DNA of 58,104 nt, counting the filler, from Limisphaerales bacterium (lineage in GTDB: Bacteria; Verrucomicrobiota; Verrucomicrobiia; Limisphaerales; SIBE01), in NCBI GenBank assembly GCA_044225505.1. It is 4 parts of 4 records of this genome, joined end to end, with 100 filler letters (N's around TTAATTAATTAA, not from the genome) between each part and the next. Parts side by side here need not be neighbours in the genome. Positions count along the whole stretch, not along the records: positions 30,201 to 44,648 come from JBGAIN010000196.1; 3 more parts are not named here. One strand, given 5' to 3'. The notes beneath the pieces were generated by a model, which saw only the letters and a list, made by a program, of their open reading frames with translations, had not been told where the DNA came from and did no database searches. This document shows positions 32,802-44,128 of the stretch, piece after piece. Every line of letters begins with the position of its first letter. Positions within the stretch are counted from its first letter, which is position 1. The position numbers and the translations under genes were made by a program.

Positions 32802-33548
32802 GTGAACGTCAGTCTGTATCAAGCTGCTTCGGCGCTTAACGCCAGTTCTCGATGGCAGGAAGTCGTCTCGGAGAACTTGGCTTCAAGCTCGATCCCTGGT
32901 TACAAAAGGCAGGACCTTTCGTTTTCCGCAGTGCAAGCCGGAATGATGTCGGGCTCGCAAGGCGCACTCGCCCAACATTTCAGCCTCGCTCAAGCGAATA
33001 CATCGACGAATTTCCAACCTGGTGAGCTTCGGGCCACCTGGGTCAAGACGGACGTTGCCATCGACGGGAAAGGCTTTTTTGCGATTCAAATGGCGAACGG
33101 TGCGACCGCTTACACGCGGGACGGCGAGTTCCAGATCAATGCGCAGGGTGAACTTGTCACTAAACAGGGGCATCCTGTGTTGGGGGAATCCGGCCCTATT
33201 CGCATCAACCTTACGGATCCCAACCCGATCTCCATTTCGGCGACGGGAGAGGTAAGTCAGGGCGGACAAGTGCAGGGTAAACTGCGCATCGTCGATTTTA
33301 ATCAACCGCAGTTGCTGACCTCGACAGGAGGCGGCTATTTCATGGCCCAAAGCCCTGACTTGGTTCCAAATGAAATCGCGAAGCCATCGCTGCGCCAGGG
33401 CTACCTGGAAGGAGCCAACACTTCGTCCGTGGCGGAAATGGCCAATCTCATCACGGTCATGCGCGGTTTTGAAGCGAATCAACGGGTCATCCAAATCCAG
33501 GATGAGCGCATGGGCCGTGCGATTTCTGAACTCGGCAATCCAAGTTAA
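32802..33548 (+). CDS. flgF: Flagellar basal-body rod protein FlgF
   Basis: SENLAS..PGYK; DVAIDGKGFF; YTRDGEF; QGYLEGAN; RGFEANQRV; directly precedes flgG. Confidence 0.85.
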   Translation: MNVSLYQAASALNASSRWQEVVSENLASSSIPGYKRQDLSFSAVQAGMMSGSQGALAQHFSLAQANTSTNFQPGELRATWVKTDVAIDGKGFFAIQMANGATAYTRDGEFQINAQGELVTKQGHPVLGESGPIRINLTDPNPISISATGEVSQGGQVQGKLRIVDFNQPQLLTSTGGGYFMAQSPDLVPNEIAKPSLRQGYLEGANTSSVAEMANLITVMRGFEANQRVIQIQDERMGRAISELGNPS

Positions 33549-33556
33549 CTCGTGTT

Positions 33557-34339
33557 ATGTTGCGCGCCTTATATTCCTCTGCGGCTGGGATGCAATCGCA
33601 GCAGACCAACCTCGATATCATCGCTAACAACCTCGCCAACGTTAATACGACCGGTTTCAAGAAGGACAAGGCGGAGTTCCAAGATCTACTCTATCAGACC
33701 ACCCGCACGCCAGGCGCAGATCAGGGGGGCGGTAATCAGCTTCCGACTGGCGTTCAGATTGGCCATGGTTCTCGCTTGGTTGCCACTTCAAAAGTCTTCA
33801 CCACGGGAGAGTTGACGCAAACGGGAGAGCGCCTGGACGTGGCAATCCAAGGTGACGGCTTTTTCGAAGTCCAGCTTCCTGACGGCACCAAAGGATATAC
33901 CCGGGATGGGGCCCTGAAACTCGCTTCGGACGGCCGAATTACCACGAGCGACGGACTTGTGCTGCAAGGCGGTTTTCAACCGATTCCCTCGGGAACTACT
34001 GCCATCACGATAGCGTCGACCGGTGAGATAACAACGACGGGGCCGAGCGGTAATCAATCGTTCCGCGTCCAGTTGGTTCGATTTGCTAACCCGGCGGGCC
34101 TTCAGAATCTGGGGCGCAACCTGTTCAAAGACACGACCGCCTCAGGGGCCGCAGAACTGGGAAACCCTGGGGAGAACGGCTTTGGTGAACTGCAGCAGGG
34201 ATACCTGGAAATGTCGAACGTCAAAGTGGTGGAAGAAATGGTAAACATGATCGTCGCGCAGCGTGCTTACGAAGTGAACTCGAAGGCCGTGCAAGCGTCC
34301 GACGAAATGATGCAGATGAGTAATAACCTCCGTCGGTAA
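33557..34339 (+). CDS. flgG: Flagellar basal-body rod protein FlgG
   Basis: MLRALYSSAAGM..QQTNLDIIANNLANVNTTGFKK..AEFQDLLYQ; LEMSNVKVVEEMVNMIVAQRAYE. Confidence 0.95.
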   Translation: MLRALYSSAAGMQSQQTNLDIIANNLANVNTTGFKKDKAEFQDLLYQTTRTPGADQGGGNQLPTGVQIGHGSRLVATSKVFTTGELTQTGERLDVAIQGDGFFEVQLPDGTKGYTRDGALKLASDGRITTSDGLVLQGGFQPIPSGTTAITIASTGEITTTGPSGNQSFRVQLVRFANPAGLQNLGRNLFKDTTASGAAELGNPGENGFGELQQGYLEMSNVKVVEEMVNMIVAQRAYEVNSKAVQASDEMMQMSNNLRR

Positions 34340-34350
34340 TTTGTTTTGAC

Positions 34351-35322
34351 GTGGCACTTTTTTCGATGACAACCCCTTTATTAGGTTTAATCCTCTGGTT
34401 GACCGGCCTTGCCGCGTTCGGCGCTACGCAACCGGCGCCCGAAGTGACGGCCTGGCGGCTTCTGCCCCAGGTTCAAGTCCATGCTTCCGGCGTCTACCTC
34501 AACGAACTCATCGAGAATCCACCGCTGCCCTTGCCGCACGTCCGCCTTGGCGCCGCGCCTAGTATTGGTCAGGCCATGACTCTCTCGCGCGCGCAAGTGA
34601 CGGAACTCGTGCGCCAAGCCGTGCCAGAGTTAGTCAATACCAACTGGACTGGGCCGACGCAGGTGCGGGTGGTCCGACGCGTCCGACCTTTGGAAGAAGC
34701 TGAGGTCAAAGATTTGCTAACGGCGGCCCTGCAGCGCGACTACGTCAAAGAGCGGGGCGATGTGGAACTGCGTTTTACGCGACCGTGGCCAGCGACACCG
34801 ATTGCTGACGAGCCGTTTACGCTAAACATCGTGGACCTGCCTTCCGCAGGAGTGTCGGCAAACTTCATTCTACGTTTTGAACTCCGTTCGGATCAATCGT
34901 TGCTGGGCAATTGGCAAGTGCCCGTCCAAGCCCGGGTCTGGCGTGAGGTGTGGGTAACGAGCGCCCCGGTGCAACGCGGTCAACCGCTCAAATCGGCCGA
35001 AATCGTTCGACAACGCCGCGATGTCCTGACCCTGCGCGATGCGCTCCCAGCGGTCAATTTTGACGATCCAGGCCTCGAGTTTGCGGAAAACATCCCCGCG
35101 GGCTTGCCGCTGACAACGCGGTCGCTTCGCCTTCGGCCGATCGTGCAACGGGGCCGCTTGGTCGATGCCATTGTGCAGGAGGGATCCCTGATCATTTCGA
35201 CAAAGGCTGAAGTTCTCGAAGACGGCCTTCCCGGACAATGGGTTCGTGCCCGCAATATCCGGTCTAAACGTGAGTTTCGAGGAAAGGTGCAAAATGAAGA
35301 GACAATCCAGGTGGCGTTCTGA
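34351..35322 (+). CDS. flgA: P-ring formation chaperone FlgA (alternative ATG 34366)
   Basis: Signal peptide; C-terminal SAF-like IVQRGRLV...AEVLEDGLPGQWVRARNIRSKR; position between flgG and flgH. Confidence 0.85.
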   Translation: MALFSMTTPLLGLILWLTGLAAFGATQPAPEVTAWRLLPQVQVHASGVYLNELIENPPLPLPHVRLGAAPSIGQAMTLSRAQVTELVRQAVPELVNTNWTGPTQVRVVRRVRPLEEAEVKDLLTAALQRDYVKERGDVELRFTRPWPATPIADEPFTLNIVDLPSAGVSANFILRFELRSDQSLLGNWQVPVQARVWREVWVTSAPVQRGQPLKSAEIVRQRRDVLTLRDALPAVNFDDPGLEFAENIPAGLPLTTRSLRLRPIVQRGRLVDAIVQEGSLIISTKAEVLEDGLPGQWVRARNIRSKREFRGKVQNEETIQVAF

Positions 35323-35926
35323 GTGGGTCGGGGCGGCGGTTTTGAGCGTGGCTTGCGTCCTGCCCGTGACAGGGCAGTCGTTGTGGAAAGAAAACTCTTC
35401 CACCTCGCTAATTAGTGATAAACGAGCCCGTGCCGTCGGCGATATTTTAACCATCCTCGTGCAGGAAAACCACAGCGCCAGCAAAGACAATACAACTAAA
35501 ACCGCGCGGAGCAGCGGAGTCGATGCGAGTGTTGGAACTTTTCTTTATGCGCCCGCGGCCAGCGGTCTGCTCACGAAGAACGGGCAAATGCCGGCCCTCA
35601 AGCTCAACAGCAAACAAGACTTTAGCGGAGGCGGACAGATCAATAACTCCGAGAAGATCACCGCCCGGATCGCGGTCCGGGTCGTTGACGTCCTGCCGAA
35701 TGGGAACTTAATGATCGAGGGCACGCACCAAACCTCGTTTGCCGGAGAAACGCAGGATGCCATCTTGCGCGGCGTGGTGCGGAGCGAAGACGTGCAGTCT
35801 AATAACACCGTTTATAGTTACAACGTGGCCGATGCCACGATCCGATACTTGTCGAAAGGTAGTGTCACGGACTCGCAGAAGAAGGGGTGGTTTACCCGCG
35901 TGTGGGATAAAGTATCGCCATTCTAA
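35294..35926 (+). CDS. flgH: Flagellar L-ring protein FlgH
   Basis: DKRARAVGDILTILVQE; VVDVLPNGNLMIEG; LRGVVRSEDV..NNTV.S..VADA; GWFTR. Confidence 0.92.
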   Translation: MKRQSRWRSEWVGAAVLSVACVLPVTGQSLWKENSSTSLISDKRARAVGDILTILVQENHSASKDNTTKTARSSGVDASVGTFLYAPAASGLLTKNGQMPALKLNSKQDFSGGGQINNSEKITARIAVRVVDVLPNGNLMIEGTHQTSFAGETQDAILRGVVRSEDVQSNNTVYSYNVADATIRYLSKGSVTDSQKKGWFTRVWDKVSPF

Positions 35927-35937
35927 CTTTTCTTTTT

Positions 35938-37089
35938 GTGCATCGTTTTTCTGTCAGCTCACAAACGCGATCGCGAGCCAGGACGGCAACCGTTGGTCGT
36001 TGGCTTGGACTCGCTCTGTTCGTCACGCTTGTTTTTTCGGTGGAAGCGGGTTCGCGAGTGAAGGATCTGGCCGTCATCTCAGGCGCGCGAGATAATCAAC
36101 TCGTCGGATACGGCCTGGTCGCAGGCTTGGCGAACGATGGGGATAAGAATCTTGTCTTCACCGTCCAAAGCATCGCCAATATGCTGCAACGCTTCGGCAT
36201 CAACGTGCCTCCGGCGACGCTTCAATCCAAAAATGTCGCCGCGGTAATGGTGACGGCGGATATTCCCGCATTTGTCAGAAATGGAACGCGCTTGGATGTG
36301 ACCGTCTCGGCGATTGGCGATGCCAAGACGCTGCAGGGCGGTGTGCTCTTGCAGACGCCGTTAGTCGGAGCGGATGGCAAGGTCTATGCCGTCGCTCAAG
36401 GCGCGCTGGCAATCGGCGGTTTTATCGGCGGTTCCGGCGGTCCGGGCGGAGCTACCGTCCAGAAGAATCATCCCACGGTCGCGCAGATCACTTCCGGGGC
36501 TTTAGTTGAAAAAGAGATCCCGACGGAGATCGTGCACAACGGATTCCTGGAATTGCTGCTGCGGGACCCGGATTTCACCTCGGCGTCTCGCATGGCCGCA
36601 GCCATCAACGGACTTTTCCCTGGCAGCGCGCAGGCGGCCGATTCGACGTCGGTGCGAGTCCGCGTTCCAGAGGGACACGACGGCGCGCCCGTGGATTTCA
36701 TTTCTCGAGTGGAAGCGGTGGAGGTCGTTCCTGATGTGCCCGCTCGTGTGGTTATCAATGAGAGGACTGGGACGATCGTCGCAACCTCGCGGATTCGAAT
36801 TTCCACTTGTGCCGTTTCCCATGGTGAGCTCACGATCAGTATCGCCTCGTCGCTGGATGTTTCTCAACCGAAGGAGCTCAGTCAGACCGGATCGACCGCC
36901 GTGACGCCGCGCACAGATACGCAGGTGAATGAACCGAAAGGGACGTTCATCACGCTCTCAGATATGCCCACCATCGAGAAGGTTGCGGCGGGGTTAAACG
37001 CCATTGGGGTCACCCCGCGCGATATGATGGCGATCTTCCAAGCAATGAAGCAAGCGGGCGCTCTGCAAGCTGAACTCGTCCTTCGTTAG
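35938..37089 (+). CDS. flgI: Flagellar P-ring protein FlgI
   Basis: RDNQLVGYGLVAGL; KNVAAVMVTA; GDAKTLQGGVLLQTPL; VVINERTGTIV; QAMKQAGALQAEL. Confidence 0.95.
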   Translation: MHRFSVSSQTRSRARTATVGRWLGLALFVTLVFSVEAGSRVKDLAVISGARDNQLVGYGLVAGLANDGDKNLVFTVQSIANMLQRFGINVPPATLQSKNVAAVMVTADIPAFVRNGTRLDVTVSAIGDAKTLQGGVLLQTPLVGADGKVYAVAQGALAIGGFIGGSGGPGGATVQKNHPTVAQITSGALVEKEIPTEIVHNGFLELLLRDPDFTSASRMAAAINGLFPGSAQAADSTSVRVRVPEGHDGAPVDFISRVEAVEVVPDVPARVVINERTGTIVATSRIRISTCAVSHGELTISIASSLDVSQPKELSQTGSTAVTPRTDTQVNEPKGTFITLSDMPTIEKVAAGLNAIGVTPRDMMAIFQAMKQAGALQAELVLR

Positions 37090-37091
37090 CC

Positions 37092-37457
37092 ATGCAAGTC
37101 AACCTCTCTCAACGCTCAATTGACGCCTCGCAAATGCCAGTGGAAAAGCTGGCAGGCAATCCGCAACTCTCCCAAGCGCAAAAGTTGACGGAGCTCAGCC
37201 GCCAGTTTGAAGCGGTGCTCGTGCGGCAAATTTTGTCGGAAGCCCAAAAGCCCCTGATTCAATCGTCAGGTGCCGGGTCGGCGGTGGCTGGCCAGGTCTA
37301 CCACGACATGATCACGAACCAGTTGGCGGATCAAATCAGTCACTCTGGGATTGGCTTAGCGCGCGGTCTGGAAACCCAGTTGCATCGTCAAAACGCGGCG
37401 AATGAAGCGGCCGCAGCCAAAGCTCAAACTCCCACATCCCAGGTGAAGCAACCCTAA
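37092..37457 (+). CDS. flgJ: FlgJ-like rod-binding protein (no muramidase domain)
   Basis: RQFEAVLVRQIL...YHDM...LA..IS..GIGLA..L..QL; follows flgI. Confidence 0.75.
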   Translation: MQVNLSQRSIDASQMPVEKLAGNPQLSQAQKLTELSRQFEAVLVRQILSEAQKPLIQSSGAGSAVAGQVYHDMITNQLADQISHSGIGLARGLETQLHRQNAANEAAAAKAQTPTSQVKQP

Positions 37458-37463
37458 GCCGGT

Positions 37464-37961
37464 ATGATCGCATTGATAGAAGAGTTAATTAGCGCTCTCC
37501 GTGAGGAACTCCAGCAATACGGCGAAATGCTCGCCCGGCTCGATTCTCATCAAGGTCTCGTCATGCATCGACAGACGGAGAATCTACTGCAGTCGGTCGC
37601 CGACATTGAGTCCCAAGGTGCTGTCATCCAGGAAGCGCGGCGACTACGGGAACTTCGTCGGGCCGAGCTCGCGCGAGCCCTGGGATTTGCCGACGATGCG
37701 CCGTTCAGCAAGATCGCGCCCGCGTTGCCAGAGGATTATCGTCCGCTGGTGGGTGCCCTCGTGGAGGAGAACAACGAACTGCTCGTGCGGATTCAGCAAC
37801 GATCTCGGCAAAACCATCTGCTGCTGGCGCGCACGGTCGACATGATGCAGCGGTTCATCGGCACACTTTTCCCGGGAAACAGCAGCCCTGTTTACAATGC
37901 CGGAGGCATGGTGTTTGGCCCAGCCCTGGCGCGCTCCTCGCTTTACGACGCAGTCGGATAG
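37464..37961 (+). CDS. flgN: Flagellar export chaperone FlgN
   Basis: Helical 165-aa protein directly before flgK; QNHLLL...YNAGG C-terminal pattern. Confidence 0.75.
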   Translation: MIALIEELISALREELQQYGEMLARLDSHQGLVMHRQTENLLQSVADIESQGAVIQEARRLRELRRAELARALGFADDAPFSKIAPALPEDYRPLVGALVEENNELLVRIQQRSRQNHLLLARTVDMMQRFIGTLFPGNSSPVYNAGGMVFGPALARSSLYDAVG

Positions 37962-37970
37962 AGGATTCAT

Positions 37971-39392
37971 ATGCTTGGATTATTTGGAACACTTCAACTC
38001 GGCGCCCGATCGCTCATCACGCAGCAGCAGGGTGTGGAAGTGGCCGGCCATAACCTGGCCAACGTCAATAATCCTGCCTATGCGCGGCAGCGGTTGAGCA
38101 TCACCACTTCGCCTACGGTTCCAGGAGATTTGGGTGCCCAAGGCACAGGCGTTGAGTCTGCCGCCATCGTCAGGCTCCGGTCTGATATTCTCGATCAGGA
38201 AATCCAAAGCGAGGTTTCCATCCGCGGTTCACTCGAATCTCAGCAGAGCGCGCTGCAGTTTGCGCAATCGAGCTTGGGGCAGGAGCTGGATAGCTCAGCC
38301 GCCGCGAGCGGCGCTTCGGGATATGTCGGTGTCTCTCACAGTTTGGCGGATGGGTATGCCGATTTGTTTGCGAGCTTCCAGGGGCTCTCCAGCGATCCGA
38401 CCTCGTTGTCTGAGCGACAGATCGTGCTGGGCAAAGCGGGCGCCCTGGCGAATCAGTTCAACCAAATCGATCATCGGCTAGACCTGGTCAATACGTCGTT
38501 GAACCAGGCAGTGAAGGACGACACCAACACAGCCAATTCTCTCTTGGCCGAACTCGCCAACCTGAATGATCAGATTACTCGATCGGAGATTGGCGCTCCC
38601 GGATCGGCCAACGACCTTCGCGACTTGCGCCAGAGCAAGATCGAAGAGTTGTCCAAATTAGTGAAGATCGACATCTCGTCCGGTAATAACGGCGCGGTTA
38701 ACGTCTCGATCGGCGGCACCCTGATGGTTTCCGGGTTGGAGGTGGCGGATAAGCTGGAAGCGTACGACACGGGCAGTGGCCAAATCGGACTGCGCTCGGC
38801 AGCGACGGGAACTGCCTTGTTTATTACCGGCGGGAAACTCCACGGCACGATGGAAGCTCGGGATGGTGCCATTGCGGACTTGCGGACCCAGATCAATACG
38901 ATGGCGACGCAATTGATCCAAGAGGTCAACACGCTGCACACGGCGGGCTACAGCCTGACCGGGACGACGGGCGCTGCTTTTTTCAGTGGAACGGACGCTT
39001 CCGACATCAAAGTCAATCCGGCCCTGGTCGACATTCCGGCTTTGATTCAAGCCGCTTAGGTCTCAGGCGCGGTCGGAGACAACAAGGTCGCCCTGGCTTT
39101 AGCTCAGTTAGCGCAGAAGAGTCAATCGGCCCTTAGTAATCGCACATTTGGTGAATCTTATGCCAGCAATGCGACTGCTTTTGGATTGGCTGTCTCCACG
39201 GTAGATAACCAGTTGGAAGATCAGCAAATCGTGGAACAACTGCTCTTGCAGCGGCGCGACTCTGCCAGTGGTGTTTCCCTGGACGAGGAGATGACGGACC
39301 TGACGCGGTATCAGCGGGCCTTTCAAGCTTCGGCCCGACTCATTACCACCGTGGACGAGCTTCTCACCACCGTCGTCAACTTGAAGCAATAG
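37971..39392 (+). pseudogene. flgK: Hook-associated protein FlgK interrupted by one in-frame TAG (39057-39059); nonsense mutation or sequencing error
   Basis: GHNLANVNNPAYARQR N-terminus; the same frame resumes after TAG with VSGAVGDNKVALALAQL...SGVSLDEEMTDLTRYQRAFQASARLI. Confidence 0.85.
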
Positions 39393-39443
39393 CATGGTTG
39401 AATGATTTCCTGAAAACGCCACGGCGTTACTTTCCTTTATCGC

Positions 39444-40379
39444 ATGCGAGTCACTTCCAATACCTTCACGAGTGATCTGCTCGGGCAGCTAAGCATTCTC
39501 AATAATCAGCAGAGCCGACTGCAACGGGAGGCGGCAACGGGCCAGAGAATCTCTGCCCCGGGCGACGATCCCGCGGCCACGGGACGCGTTCTCAACATGC
39601 AGATGGAAGCGACGGGGGTCTCGCGCTATCAAAAGAACATTGCGACGCAGCAGCGCGTCAGCCAAGCCAGTTTTGAGGCCATGCAGTCGCTCAAGAAGAT
39701 CTCGGATCGTGCGGGCGAGATCGCCACCTTGGCCGATGGCCTTAAGTCGCCCCTCGCCATCTCCACCTACGCGAAGGAAGTCGAAGAGTTGACCCGCCAG
39801 GCCGTCGAAGTGGCCAACTCCAAAAGCAACGGCAGCTATTTGTTTGGCGGCACGCGAACGGATCAAGCCCCGTTCACGCTCACGAAGAATCCTGATGGCA
39901 CTCCTGCCAGCGTGACTTACAGCGGCAATACGGACCTGCCCGAGACCGAGATCGCCGAGGGGGTCACGCTGAGCCCGCAAACATTGGGCGCTAACACTAC
40001 CGGGTCTGGTCCGCAAGGATTGCTCATGGACTCTCGGTCGGGCGTCGATCTCTTAAATCACCTCATCTCCCTGCAGCAGCATCTCTCGGCTGGGGATACC
40101 GCTTCCATCGCCAGCACCGACCGGGCGCTGCTGGAGAAAGACGAATCCAGCTTGATTCAGAACCTCGCTGCAACCGGCGCAGTTCAGTCTCGCTTGGAAG
40201 CGGCGGCCTCCGTTGCCCAAGCCCGCACTTCCTCGCTGGAGAAAGCCGTCTCGGGTGAAATGGATGCGGATTTGGCGCAGACTCTCGTCAAGCTTGGCCA
40301 AACCCAGACGGCCTACCAGGCCGCTCTGCAAACGGGCGGCTCTGTCCTCAAGCTCTCTCTGCTCGACTATCTACGCTGA
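39444..40379 (+). CDS. flgL: Hook-associated protein FlgL
   Basis: ATGQRISAPGDDPAA; GSYLFGG; DADLA...QTAYQAALQ...LSLLDYLR. Confidence 0.92.
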   Translation: MRVTSNTFTSDLLGQLSILNNQQSRLQREAATGQRISAPGDDPAATGRVLNMQMEATGVSRYQKNIATQQRVSQASFEAMQSLKKISDRAGEIATLADGLKSPLAISTYAKEVEELTRQAVEVANSKSNGSYLFGGTRTDQAPFTLTKNPDGTPASVTYSGNTDLPETEIAEGVTLSPQTLGANTTGSGPQGLLMDSRSGVDLLNHLISLQQHLSAGDTASIASTDRALLEKDESSLIQNLAATGAVQSRLEAAASVAQARTSSLEKAVSGEMDADLAQTLVKLGQTQTAYQAALQTGGSVLKLSLLDYLR

Positions 40380-40470
40380 GCGATCCGCGGACCGGTCCGT
40401 CTGAACGCTGGCAATAGCCTTTGACGCCCGACCTGCGCTGGAAGTATCTTGGCTTCGCCAGATTTCGCGT

Positions 40471-41667
40471 ATGCCAAGCACTCTCGTTTCCTCATCGCCA
40501 GGAATGGAATTATCCGTCGCCTTACCCTGTTCCACTCGAACGGCGAGCCGGTTCCTCGTCGTCGGCGCGGTAAGCATTGTTGTGGGGGTGCTTTGGGATA
40601 TCTCCTGGCATCGCACAATTGGTCGAGACACCTTTTGGACACCCGCCCACCTGGCGATTTACTTGGGCGGGTTGCTAGGAGGCCTGGTCGGCGGGTGGCT
40701 GGTGCTTCGAAGCACCTGGACTTCTCTCTCTTCGAGGGAGGCGGCCGGTGTGCGAGTCCTCGGCTTTCGCGGCCCCTTCGGCGCGTGGGTGTGCATCTGG
40801 GGATCTTTGGCAATGTTGATTTCCGCGCCGTTTGATAACTGGTGGCATGACGCCTATGGATTGGACGTCAAGATTCTAAGCCCACCCCACAGCGTTTTGG
40901 CACTCGGCATGTGGGCCGTTGCGCTCGGCGCATTGCTCCTGGTCCTGCGCGAGCAAAACAATGCTTCCCAGCCCGGCGTTTCGGTCGATGGATGGCTTTT
41001 CATTCTGGTGGCGGGGATTCTCCTGGCCATGGGAGCCGTTTTCCTCACGGAGCACAGTTTCCCCAATGACCAGCATTCGGCCACGTTCTATCGCATGTCG
41101 TGCGCGACTTATCCGTTATACCTCCTTGGAATTGCCCGGGCCTCGCGATCGCGCTGGGCCGCGACGTGGATCGCGCTGGTCTACATGACCATCATGGCCG
41201 GGATGGCTTGGCTGCTCCCCTTATTTCCAGGGCAACCGAAGCTCGGCCCTATTTATCACCATGTAGACCATTTTGTGGCGTTGCCTTTCCCCCTTCTCAT
41301 GATCGTGCCCGCATTTGCCATCGATCTTGTCCGGCGCTGGATCGGCCACGGCCGAAGTTGGTGGCGGGACTGGCTAATCGTCTTCGTTGGCGCGGCGGCT
41401 TTCCTGGGACCGTTTCTCCTCACCCAATGGCATTTCTCTCGGTTCATGCTAACCCCAGCCGCCGGGAATTGGTTCTTTGCGGGCGATCGGCACTGGGGCT
41501 ATACCGAGAACCTCGGGGATTGGCGGTTTCAATTCTGGGACGAAACCAATCCCAGACAGCATCCACCTGTCACCTGGGCGGGCATTGGAATCGCCTACGG
41601 CTACGCCGTCGTCTCGGCGCGCCTGGGGCTATGGCTAGGGAATTGGATGTCCAAGGTCCGACGATGA
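40471..41667 (+). CDS. Polytopic membrane protein with two PmoC/AmoC-like metal-binding motifs
   Basis: About 9-10 hydrophobic segments; WDISWHRTIGRDTFWTPAH and FDNWWHDAYGLDVKILSPPH. Confidence 0.85.
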   Translation: MPSTLVSSSPGMELSVALPCSTRTASRFLVVGAVSIVVGVLWDISWHRTIGRDTFWTPAHLAIYLGGLLGGLVGGWLVLRSTWTSLSSREAAGVRVLGFRGPFGAWVCIWGSLAMLISAPFDNWWHDAYGLDVKILSPPHSVLALGMWAVALGALLLVLREQNNASQPGVSVDGWLFILVAGILLAMGAVFLTEHSFPNDQHSATFYRMSCATYPLYLLGIARASRSRWAATWIALVYMTIMAGMAWLLPLFPGQPKLGPIYHHVDHFVALPFPLLMIVPAFAIDLVRRWIGHGRSWWRDWLIVFVGAAAFLGPFLLTQWHFSRFMLTPAAGNWFFAGDRHWGYTENLGDWRFQFWDETNPRQHPPVTWAGIGIAYGYAVVSARLGLWLGNWMSKVRR

Positions 41668-43268
41668 AACCTCTTCGGCCTCGCGGGCAGGGCAGGGGAA
41701 GCCTCGGCCTTATCCTGGCGCTTTGGATCAGCATGGCTTTCCCAGGGGTGCTCCGTGCTCATGTCGGTTCGTCGACCGTCTTCTTCGATGGCCAAATCGG
41801 TCCGTATCAGGCGCGGGTGACGGTCCAGCCTCCGGAGGTTATTCCCGGTTTAGCGACGGTCAACGTGCGCGCCCTCAGTCCTGGTGTTCAGCGCGTGACG
41901 GCTTTGCCCATCCGCTGGAACACCGGCCGCCAGGGCGCACCGCCGCCCGACATCGCGAAGCCGGTCCGAGGAGAGTCCAATCTTTACTCCGCTCAGCTCT
42001 GGTTCATGCAAGGTGGTGCGCAAAGTGTCGAGGTGGAAGTGTTCGGCTCGGAGGGTTCGGGTAAAACCATACTCCCGGTCAACGCCGTCGCCACGCGGGT
42101 TCTTCCGATGCCCAAGCCGCTCGCTTACCTTCTGTTTGGGCTCGGGTCTTGCCTGGTCTTGCTCCTGACGGTCATTGTGGGCGCCGCCGTGCGTGAAGGA
42201 GTCCTCCCGCCGGGCATTCATCCAAGTCGCCGCCGGATTTGGCTGGCCCGCGCAGCGACCGTGACATCGGCCGTGGTCGTGCTTGGGTTAGGCTTTTTGG
42301 GGAAACGTTGGTGGGATCTCGAGGCCGCCGATTATCGTAACAACCGCCTGTTCCGCCCGTTGGAAATGACCGCGAGCGTCGTATCGGCTCCAGAAGGCAG
42401 GACCCTTCGATTGGAAATGACCGATGAGGCCGTCCGACGAGGGGCGCCTCTGGTGCCAGATCACGGCAAGTTGTTGCATTTGTTCGTCATTCGCGAACCG
42501 GACCTCGACGTTTTCGCCCACTTACATCCTCAAAAAAAGGACTGGAAGACCTTCGAAATTCCTTTGCCACCGTGGCCAGCTGGACGGTACACCGCCTATG
42601 GAGATGTCACTTTCGAAACCGGCTTTACCGATACGTTGGTGGCTCGCCTGACGCTCGATGCGCCGAACGACCACGGAATCCCTCCAAAATTGGCCTTGGC
42701 CGATCCAGATGACACTTGGCATCAAGGAGTTCCGTTAGCCAACAGTTCTGTTCGGGTAGGGCAAAGCCACGTTCTCACCGACCGCCCCGGCGGACCGATT
42801 ACCATCGAGTCCGCTCTTGAGGGGGTGGCCGCAGCCACCCGTGACGTTGAACTTCGATTTCGAGTCCACGATGGCCATGGCAAACCCGTTGCCCTGGAAC
42901 CCTACTTGGGAATGAAGGCTCACCTCGTTCTTAGAAAAGACGATGGATCGGTGTTCACTCATCTGCACCCGGGCGGTTCGTATTCCATGGCAGCGCAGGA
43001 GCTTTTTGTGATGCGAGGTGACGGTCGAGCCCCTCTCCGAGTCGCATCGATCACGAACGACCCCATCTGCCGACTGCCCGCTTCTGCGGAACTTGACGCC
43101 CTGGCCCGAGCGGCGTCTCTCGAGGAGACCGGTCAGGGCGGTCTGATCGCATTCCCGTACGCGTTCCCCAAGCCTGGCCGGTACCGTCTTTGGTTTCAGG
43201 TCAAGGTAAGCGGCGAGATTCAGACGGCTGTTTTTGACCTGGACGTGCCCGCTGGCCAAGGCGCTTGA
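41664..43268 (+). CDS. Exported His-rich putative metal-binding protein: predicted mature N-terminal His, beta domain, two TM helices, two HLHP-containing domains
   Basis: ATGA overlap with upstream gene; signal ...FPGVLRA|HVGS; two central hydrophobic helices; DHGKLLHLF..AHLHP and YLGMKAHLV..THLHP. Confidence 0.85.
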   Translation: MKPLRPRGQGRGSLGLILALWISMAFPGVLRAHVGSSTVFFDGQIGPYQARVTVQPPEVIPGLATVNVRALSPGVQRVTALPIRWNTGRQGAPPPDIAKPVRGESNLYSAQLWFMQGGAQSVEVEVFGSEGSGKTILPVNAVATRVLPMPKPLAYLLFGLGSCLVLLLTVIVGAAVREGVLPPGIHPSRRRIWLARAATVTSAVVVLGLGFLGKRWWDLEAADYRNNRLFRPLEMTASVVSAPEGRTLRLEMTDEAVRRGAPLVPDHGKLLHLFVIREPDLDVFAHLHPQKKDWKTFEIPLPPWPAGRYTAYGDVTFETGFTDTLVARLTLDAPNDHGIPPKLALADPDDTWHQGVPLANSSVRVGQSHVLTDRPGGPITIESALEGVAAATRDVELRFRVHDGHGKPVALEPYLGMKAHLVLRKDDGSVFTHLHPGGSYSMAAQELFVMRGDGRAPLRVASITNDPICRLPASAELDALARAASLEETGQGGLIAFPYAFPKPGRYRLWFQVKVSGEIQTAVFDLDVPAGQGA

Positions 43269-43479
43269 GCGACGTTCCGAGCTCTCCTCAGCGTACCGCA
43301 AATGGTTGCTTATCAAAGTGTTGATTGATAATCGCTGCGCCGGCTGAGCACCGCTACGCTCTCCCGCGTCGTCGAATCGACGTGGAAATGCCCGCCCATG
43401 GTATTGTTTAAATATCTTACAGTTAACGCTTTGCCATGAGATCAAGCTGAGCTCGGGGAACGTGCATGTGCGTTCTACC

Positions 43480-43529
43480 CGCACGCTAAGCGCACGCTAA
43501 ACGCACGCTAAACGCACGCCAGCGTGCGT
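43480..43529. repeat. 11-bp tandem repeat (CGCACGCTAAR x3 plus partial) ending in an inverted copy
   Basis: cgcacgctaag cgcacgctaaa cgcacgctaaa cgcacgc-ca-gcgtgcgt. Confidence 0.8.
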
Positions 43530-43981
43530 AAGCCGTGAGATTAGCCTGCGATAGCTGTGGGGCTCGTGCGGTCAGTCCCGAATCCCGTCGCCTTTAGTTG
43601 CGTGCCAACGCCCGACGGACGAACCAAAGTCCTGGCCGCGAAACCTTACGGGAGTTGTTGGATAGCACACTAGGTTTGGGGCCGGTCGGTTCCCAAACCA
43701 AGCGTCCATAGCGCGAATTGTCGCACACTCCGTTCACAATTGTGGACGCAATCCCAAGTCACACCGCCACAACGAGATCGGAAACTCTGCGCATCGGTAA
43801 CTGGATCAGTGCGGATTGTAGTCTTAATCGTAATCCTCCCGCACCTTAGCCCGCTGTGCAATTCCCCCCGACGCATTGCGAGCTATGGAACCATTACATC
43901 CAGCCACAGCTGACGATCACAGCTGCCTGACCTCACTTTGGGTCCCCGCTTTACGACAAGGAACATGTGGGGATGACGATT

Positions 43982-44128
43982 AGCCCCGCGAGGGGCGATC
44001 GATCCTCCGAAAACACGTTGCTTCTAGGATTGGCAGAGGTTCAGCCGTCCCGTCGGGACTTTGACTGTGCGCGCGGCTGCCCGGCACTGGAAGTGCCGGG
44101 CTTATGCCACGACGTCCCTGCCGGGACG
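43982..44128. repeat. REP-like multi-hairpin element
   Basis: Hairpins GCCCC-gcga-GGGGC, GTCCC-gtc-GGGAC (44047-44059), GCCCGGCACT-gga-AGTGCCGGGC (44079-44101), CGTCCC-tgcc-GGGACG (44113-44128). Confidence 0.55.

Follow-up and report, generated by a model that had tools for sequence, protein, structure and literature searches.

This work concerns two adjacent genes on the plus strand of a Limisphaerales bacterium genome (Verrucomicrobiota; assembly GCA_044225505.1), located at positions 40471 to 43268 of a 58,104-nucleotide stretch of joined records, which is referred to here as the window. The upstream gene encodes a membrane protein related to the PmoC and PmoA subunits of the copper membrane monooxygenases (CuMMOs), and the downstream gene encodes a histidine-rich, membrane-anchored partner protein with a predicted signal peptide. 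The ATG of the partner gene at 41664 shares the sequence ATGA with the TGA of the upstream open reading frame (ORF, 40471-41667), an overlap through which the two genes are probably translationally coupled. An earlier note on this DNA had described the partner as PmoB-like with an N-terminal histidine, and the pair as a candidate two-gene CuMMO-like or copper trafficking system. The ATGA overlap, the VLRA|H site with its His codon, the two hydrophobic helices and both H...HLHP motifs were found as it described them. The features are given below, all on the plus strand, with partner residues numbered from His33 of the precursor as residue 1 (mature numbering).

40471..41667, + strand: upstream membrane subunit, 398 amino acids (aa), with a PmoC-like four-helix core and a PmoA-fold half
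40504, + strand: possible alternative start of the upstream gene (Met12)
40597..40650, + strand: CuC-type motif D43-x3-H47-x12-H60 with R52/D53, from an alignment of 74 sequences
40834..40890, + strand: CuD-type motif D122-x3-H126-x13-H140, Asp replacing Asn, from the same alignment
40966..41664, + strand: PmoA/AmoA-fold half of the upstream protein, residues about 166-398
41664..41667, + strand: ATGA stop/start overlap, putative translational coupling
41664..43268, + strand: partner gene, 534 aa, with a signal peptide, a His-first β domain, two transmembrane helices and two HLHP β domains
41664..41759, + strand: predicted Sec/signal peptidase I (SPI) signal peptide ending in VLRA, hydrophobic segment 12-30
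41760..41762, + strand: His33, mature residue 1, candidate His-brace ligand, conserved in 143 of 149 homologs
41760..42095, + strand: partner domain 1, an immunoglobulin (Ig)-like β sandwich with conserved W81 and M83 and without HxH
42114..42347, + strand: transmembrane helix pair, mature residues 119-146 and 157-196, from the AlphaFold model and couplings
42351..42665, + strand: partner domain 2 with D234-H235, H240 and H254-x-H256
42747..43259, + strand: partner domain 3 with M385, H388 and H401-x-H403, against which the N-terminus is predicted to pack

A 722-aa frame opening with GTG at 41100 was rejected as the partner start, as the homologs have a median leader of 23 residues. A single contig of run X5 covers 39468-43764, with no difference listed within either gene.

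Codon 41760-41762 reads CAT, and VLRA|H occupies residues 29-33 of the 534-aa product. At mature position 1, His is present in 118 of 120 close sequences (the other two have gaps) and in all but six of the 149 diverse homologs, which carry Asp (four), Tyr (one) or a truncation (one). An SPI-like pattern, defined by a rule of our own rather than by SignalP, is fitted by 138 of the 140 His-bearing homologs with enough leader, and residue -1 is Ala, Gly or Ser in 140/140 homologs with a usable leader. The predicted cleavage before a conserved His, on which the earlier note depended, is supported in this way. His1 is the sole conserved His of domain 1, where M83 is kept and W81 is found in 147/149 sequences. 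Residue 10 is acidic in 102/149, which can be set against the mono-His brace of YcnI/DUF1775 (His1, Glu and Trp); neither the partner nor 56 homologs match DUF1775. In domain 2, H240, H254 and H256 are invariant (149/149), and in domain 3 M385, H388, H401 and H403 are kept in 140-141 of 149 sequences, six rows being gapped. Hhalign identifies domains 2 and 3 as related repeats (91.9%), and no homology between domain 1 and either of them was detected by profile (7-8%).

The AlphaFold model of the mature partner (pLDDT 92.5, pTM 0.90) places helices 119-146 and 157-196 between β domains. All three β domains match CrdA/YtkA/CopC-type folds, the best structural matches being Ig domains of the CrdA/CopC type, and the partner has the Ig fold of the YtkA/FixH/CrdA type. 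The top-50 structural lists were headed by CrdA, CBM56 and other Ig folds; they contained no PmoB chain, which does not by itself exclude similarity. Whole-chain Foldseek returned generic multi-Ig proteins with TM-scores of about 0.2. The partner does not combine His1 and DxH in one domain as in the CopC (PF04234) site, and the Met-rich loop MxxMPGM of CrdA is absent from both its sequence and the homolog consensus.

The upstream gene is a real remote CuMMO relative, with both PmoC copper-ligand sets in register and a PmoA-like half. In a diverse alignment of 74 sequences, the six ligand positions, R52 and D132 are near-invariant: D43 and H47 are each kept in 72/74, H60 in 73/74, R52 in 74/74, and D122, H126 and H140 in 74/74 each. 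The spacing of the CuC-type motif equals that of Asp134/His138/His151 in AmoC and is also found in PmoC. The CuD-type spacing equals that of Asn205/His209/His223, with Asp as first ligand in 74/74, and this motif is in register with PmoC in a global profile alignment. A PDB profile search with the diverse alignment returned AmoC or PmoC as all of its top five matches (E 4e-5 to 0.004; next 1.6), and hhalign links the gene to PmoC at 69-90%. The C-terminal half displays a PmoA-like fold. The PmoC-like neighbor of the earlier note is hence more CuMMO-like than had been claimed. Single-sequence searches of Pfam, NCBIfam and the PDB found nothing meaningful for the upstream protein or the partner, and profiles from close homologs missed PmoC, which was found by the diverse alignment alone. 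The family stays below every curated cut-off, with weak matches to Pfam in 11/74 and to NCBIfam AmoC in 14/74 sequences. The ESM Atlas contained unnamed clusters only, and no PmoC chain was among the top-50 Foldseek matches, which again does not exclude similarity; an S-component-like fold was among the structural matches. In the helix layout of the model, the four site histidines are all on the same face of the membrane. The final helices of the protein (window 41360-41664) also align with the first third of PmoA (profile 43-47%), which hints at an internal repeat in the PmoA-like half.

Compared with the known enzymes, the upstream protein shares with PmoC/AmoC (PF04896) and PmoA/AmoA (PF02461) the CuC/CuD spacing, the RD and P-x-H motifs and the PmoA-like C-half, but it is one fused chain and its CuD Asn is replaced by Asp. 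The partner shares with PmoB/AmoB (PF04744) an N-terminal His after a predicted cleaved signal, a periplasmic β domain, two transmembrane helices and a further periplasmic domain, and its gene is likewise the last, after C- and A-like parts. It differs in lacking both profile similarity and the CuB HxH of the N-terminal domain, in consisting of three shorter Ig-like domains, and in carrying its HxH motifs in domains 2 and 3, which are members of a separate family. Using hhalign with 12 verrucomicrobial and 8 more diverse sequences, the match to PmoB/HmoB was 0.1-2.9%; PF04744 matched neither the partner nor 56 homologs, nor anything in the genome at E ≤ 1, and no match to pmoCAB was found in the host genome. 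The PmoB-like, cupredoxin-like layout proposed in the earlier note holds as topology only, and on present sequence comparisons the partner appears to be a positional analogue of PmoB whose homology to PmoB is not supported. The pair has CuC spacing, CuD spacing and a PmoA-fold subunit. It consists of two genes with no conserved third, and not of separate xmoC, xmoA and xmoB genes above the family cut-offs; because of gene number, cut-offs and the PmoB comparisons, we keep it out of the CuMMOs despite its CuMMO-like layout. As a separate observation, a very strong match to PmoB (E 7e-177) lies on a short contig (L082, G287:C75; 1758 bp) in a Verrucomicrobiota genome outside the family with the other pmoB matches, and may reflect contamination or transfer.

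Both protein families are large, with 1462 and 7690 matches among 8000 scored candidates, and the partner family forms 442 clusters at 50% identity (E up to 1e-30). The closest relatives are found in Verrucomicrobiota, followed by Acidobacteriota, Gemmatimonadota and Eisenbacteria, and the pair is also present on a Bacteroidota plasmid. Chondrinema litorale is an example of a carrier in culture. Among 80 partner loci, the membrane gene lies directly upstream in 77. One contig ends 120 bp upstream of the partner, one locus is without the membrane gene, which stands alone on another contig of that genome, and in one (L037:1285-3073) an ATPase-like ORF and an unnamed ORF separate the two genes. 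The co-occurrence that the earlier note had named as a check was also seen in the order of the host, where both genes are present in 43 of 121 genomes and neither in 76; one further genome has a membrane-gene fragment and one a weak match to a stand-alone HLHP protein. By coordinates, 44 of the 45 full copies in this order are adjacent. The pair had no match in the sampled genomes of the same genus and family and is therefore regarded as accessory. In the phylum of G401, the membrane gene occurs in 11/200 genomes (a count that leaves out one unpublished genome). There are 12 copies in all, 11 of them followed by the partner. In G511 (L147/L151) the membrane gene, and in G519 (L140) the partner, is split over two frames by a frameshift or an assembly error. 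No description of the pair or of the fusion clade presented below was found by title or start of abstract in a literature search that lay mostly outside subscription journals and did not cover supplements.

Two related clades place the pair in a wider context. Stand-alone two-domain HLHP proteins of about 300 aa, homologous to partner domains 2 and 3 and lacking domain 1 and the transmembrane pair, occur in Verrucomicrobiota, Actinomycetota, Cyanobacteriota and haloarchaea. Their neighbors are Sco, CtaA and CtaB or heavy-metal P-type ATPases, with Sco adjoining them in 18/20 loci. The genomes searched that carry them gave no match for the PmoC-like gene, and among the sampled Verrucomicrobiota the genomes with the stand-alone form were distinct from those with the pair. 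In other Verrucomicrobiota (L104-L123), an HLHP protein stands beside Sco (often as CusF-Sco fusions), CtaA, CtaB, DUF420 and CoxII. The stand-alone protein is a candidate for an undescribed cytochrome c oxidase assembly factor.

The second clade comprises distant plasmid matches of the membrane gene in Streptomyces, Mycolicibacterium and Leifsonia, which encode single chains of 475-496 aa (L125:7944-9371, L126:7917-9362, L127:7944-9377, L156:5905-7374 and L157:5917-7407; proteins P0392-P0511). Each chain has, in order, the two metal motifs, a shortened second half, a hydrophobic helix ending AxA|HDPGQG, a β domain and a final transmembrane helix. Profile comparison shows the membrane part to be homologous to the upstream gene (hhalign 99.2%) and gives no match to PmoA. 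Across the clade the β domain has conserved Trp, Tyr and Glu and often two Cys; in one member it matches FixH (E 0.01) and YtkA (E 0.049). The internal AxA|His site, at which the chain may be cleaved, is present in 119 of the 120 best among 292 matches and in 43/45 non-redundant full-length metagenome copies. Many of the genes are part of copper islands or are transcribed divergently from a TetR gene. Mostly with actinobacterial queries, 80 loci were fetched; an ORF was called in 68, which left 46 once redundancy was removed and 35 with a length of at least 7 kb. Clear copper genes were found in 13 of these 35 (17 counting YHS), versus 1/66 two-gene loci. Judged by its sequence, the single-chain form is analogous in arrangement to the pair and no proven fusion of the partner. 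The comparison shows that coupling of the membrane core to a His-first periplasmic domain is recurrent and that the HLHP domains can be dispensed with. On one Mycolicibacterium chubuense NBB4 plasmid (NC_018022.1), hydrocarbon monooxygenase genes in the order C-A-B (about 572-575 kb) and a single-chain gene (about 407-408 kb) are both present.

Mean-field covariation of the partner was computed from 341 sequences (effective number of sequences, Neff, 283). The strongest pairs are consistent with the predicted secondary structure, among them T137-T167, G141-T167 and V114-A189 within the region of the transmembrane pair. Between the N-terminus and domain 3, S4-Y467 ranks 4, V2-L477 ranks 19, V2-E380 ranks 53 and S5-Y467 ranks 57; S4-Y467 reaches rank 2 of 53,346 in a subset of diverse sequences and rank 9 in a randomly drawn half. 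Further couplings, A387-F465 and L389-L477, place Y467 near the end of domain 3 that bears M385, H388 and H403. The earlier note had suggested that the N-terminal His forms a brace with an HLH motif. This receives indirect support from the covariation with domain 3, and domain 1 offers no second conserved His. A cross-domain brace between the N-terminus and M385/H388/H401/H403 is plausible, and the covariation, with few substitution events behind it, tips the balance modestly toward a brace of His1 with the domain 3 HxH motif.

From the observed motifs and conservation and the computed folds, co-occurrence and PmoC homology of the upstream gene, we propose that the partner acts in the periplasm as the subunit that captures and loads copper in an undescribed PmoC/PmoA-like membrane complex of two subunits, a reading to which we give slightly better than an even chance. 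After cleavage of the signal, His1 would pack against domain 3 and could complete a His-brace-type copper site with M385, H388, H401 and H403. Domain 2 would carry a second His site, and the copper bound there might be handed to the CuC/CuD-type sites that lie on the periplasmic side of the upstream subunit. Several results weigh against this proposal. His1 is replaced by Asp or Tyr in 5/149 homologs, and domain 1 scores as high against carbohydrate-binding modules as against CrdA, the Ig fold being common. V2-L477 drops to rank 35 among the diverse sequences and to rank 1196 in the random half, covariation in 119 close homologs is noise in which control pairs fail too, and the Neff of about 280 includes phylogenetic structure. 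Homology between the His-first domain of the single-chain clade and partner domain 1 was not detected (1.6%). The two-gene form has a copper neighborhood in only 1 of 66 loci of at least 7 kb, and 122 flanking proteins include one HMA-bearing P1B-ATPase and one SURF1 protein, the rest being heterogeneous.

For the loaded membrane subunit, copper uptake or redox handling comes close to an even chance, O2-dependent catalysis on a lipophilic substrate is somewhat less probable, and another function is quite unlikely. An enzyme is favored by the retention of both sites in register and by an operon that stands free, and copper handling by the parallel with YcnJ and the settings in which the two related clades are found. 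In Bacillus subtilis YcnJ (CopC-CopD-YtkA), compared here together with YcnI and CopC/CopD, a His-first periplasmic β domain, a membrane part and a C-terminal YtkA-type domain are likewise combined in one unit, and a role of YcnJ in copper supply has been shown (PMC13344008). The pair differs in that its membrane part is PmoC/PmoA-like and not CopD, two subunits are involved and domain 1 lacks the DxH of CopC. Helicobacter pylori CrdA uses a Met-rich loop and no His (PMC9182242), whereas the sites of the partner are His-rich and membrane-anchored, unlike those of CrdA and the YtkA/FixH-type Ig domains.

A non-catalytic importer or relay like CopCD/YcnJ, in which a PmoC/PmoA-like translocator feeds cuproenzymes or buffers periplasmic copper, is quite possible while short of probable. 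It draws on the YcnJ-like architecture, the S-component-like fold, the copper islands of the fusion clade, and the stand-alone HLHP proteins that stand beside Sco/CtaA and, in the Verrucomicrobiota sample, occur in other genomes than the pair. However, the pair itself is not beside oxidase genes (Sco in 0/80 loci), the site histidines share one membrane face with no conserved Met/Cys/His path across the membrane noted, and two sites in PmoC register exceed the obvious need of a transporter. The same near-invariant sites, together with the exclusively AmoC/PmoC top matches, the PmoA fold, the preserved C-A-B order and a free-standing operon outside copper islands, argue for a minimal copper membrane monooxygenase of a fused C+A and a B-like subunit, with O2 activated at CuC/CuD, a small or lipophilic substrate hydroxylated and the partner brace as CuB equivalent. 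Verrucomicrobial particulate methane monooxygenases lack the CuB histidines and conserve CuC/CuD (PMC13058606), so a PmoB-type CuB would not be required. This alternative is compatible with a loading role but commits to catalysis, and we regard it as possible, on the doubtful side. Its boldest form is unlikely: the pair would be the simplest and most distant CuMMO branch, a catalytically active copper oxygenase of two subunits that is common among heterotrophs of the Verrucomicrobiota, Acidobacteriota and Gemmatimonadota. The B position would be held by an unrelated chaperone-fold protein with a CuB-like His brace rebuilt across domains, and the actinobacterial clade would be a C-A-B-ordered polyprotein cut internally by signal peptidase. 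True homology of the partner to PmoB/AmoB, with strong divergence and a shift of the HxH to the C-terminal domain, is decidedly improbable. Topology, gene order and His1 after a predicted cleaved signal agree with it, and CopC-type barrels are called cupredoxin-like (PMC12362106), so that the fold classes are not far apart; yet the test that links the upstream gene to PmoC gives next to nothing for PmoB, and domains 2 and 3 belong to a widespread family found without any CuMMO-like gene. A complex binding another metal (Zn, Fe or Ni), such as a membrane hydrolase or reductase, is improbable as well. Asp-His-His sets and His clusters are not specific to copper, and the two-gene loci lack copper neighbors, but copper is indicated by the His at the mature ends, by the sites that combine Met and His, by the fold matches to CrdA/CopC and by the location of the related clades beside Sco or in copper islands. 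The copper-related role suggested in the earlier note is counted as supported.

Opinions still differ on whether methane and ammonia monooxygenases have their active site at CuC, at CuD or at both (PMC13058606, PMC12801151), and in CuMMO trees archaeal AMO is taken as outgroup by distance (PMC6215863). A widespread family with both PmoC sites, a PmoA fold and a swapped B subunit would offer an outside reference for CuMMO origin and a natural test of the purpose of CuB and PmoB, and the single-chain clade, present in cultured Streptomyces, Mycolicibacterium and Leifsonia, makes mutagenesis possible on a single gene. A complex confined to copper handling would still be a new copper pathway, in bacteria abundant in soil and sludge, and would point to shared ancestry of CuMMOs with copper-trafficking machinery.

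In RNA libraries, the upstream gene is matched by short contigs only (166-257 nt), which is no evidence of expression or habitat, and promoter and terminator scans gave results at chance level. Directly upstream of the pair, on the same strand, lies a flagellar gene run (window 32802-40379), whose genes we take from their translations to be flgF, flgG, flgA, flgH, flgI, flgJ, flgN, flgK and flgL. Downstream, an 11-bp tandem repeat of 3.6 copies is located in non-coding DNA at 43480-43519, and the non-coding stretch at about 43400-44000 draws many other contigs in run X5, which suggests a multi-copy element.
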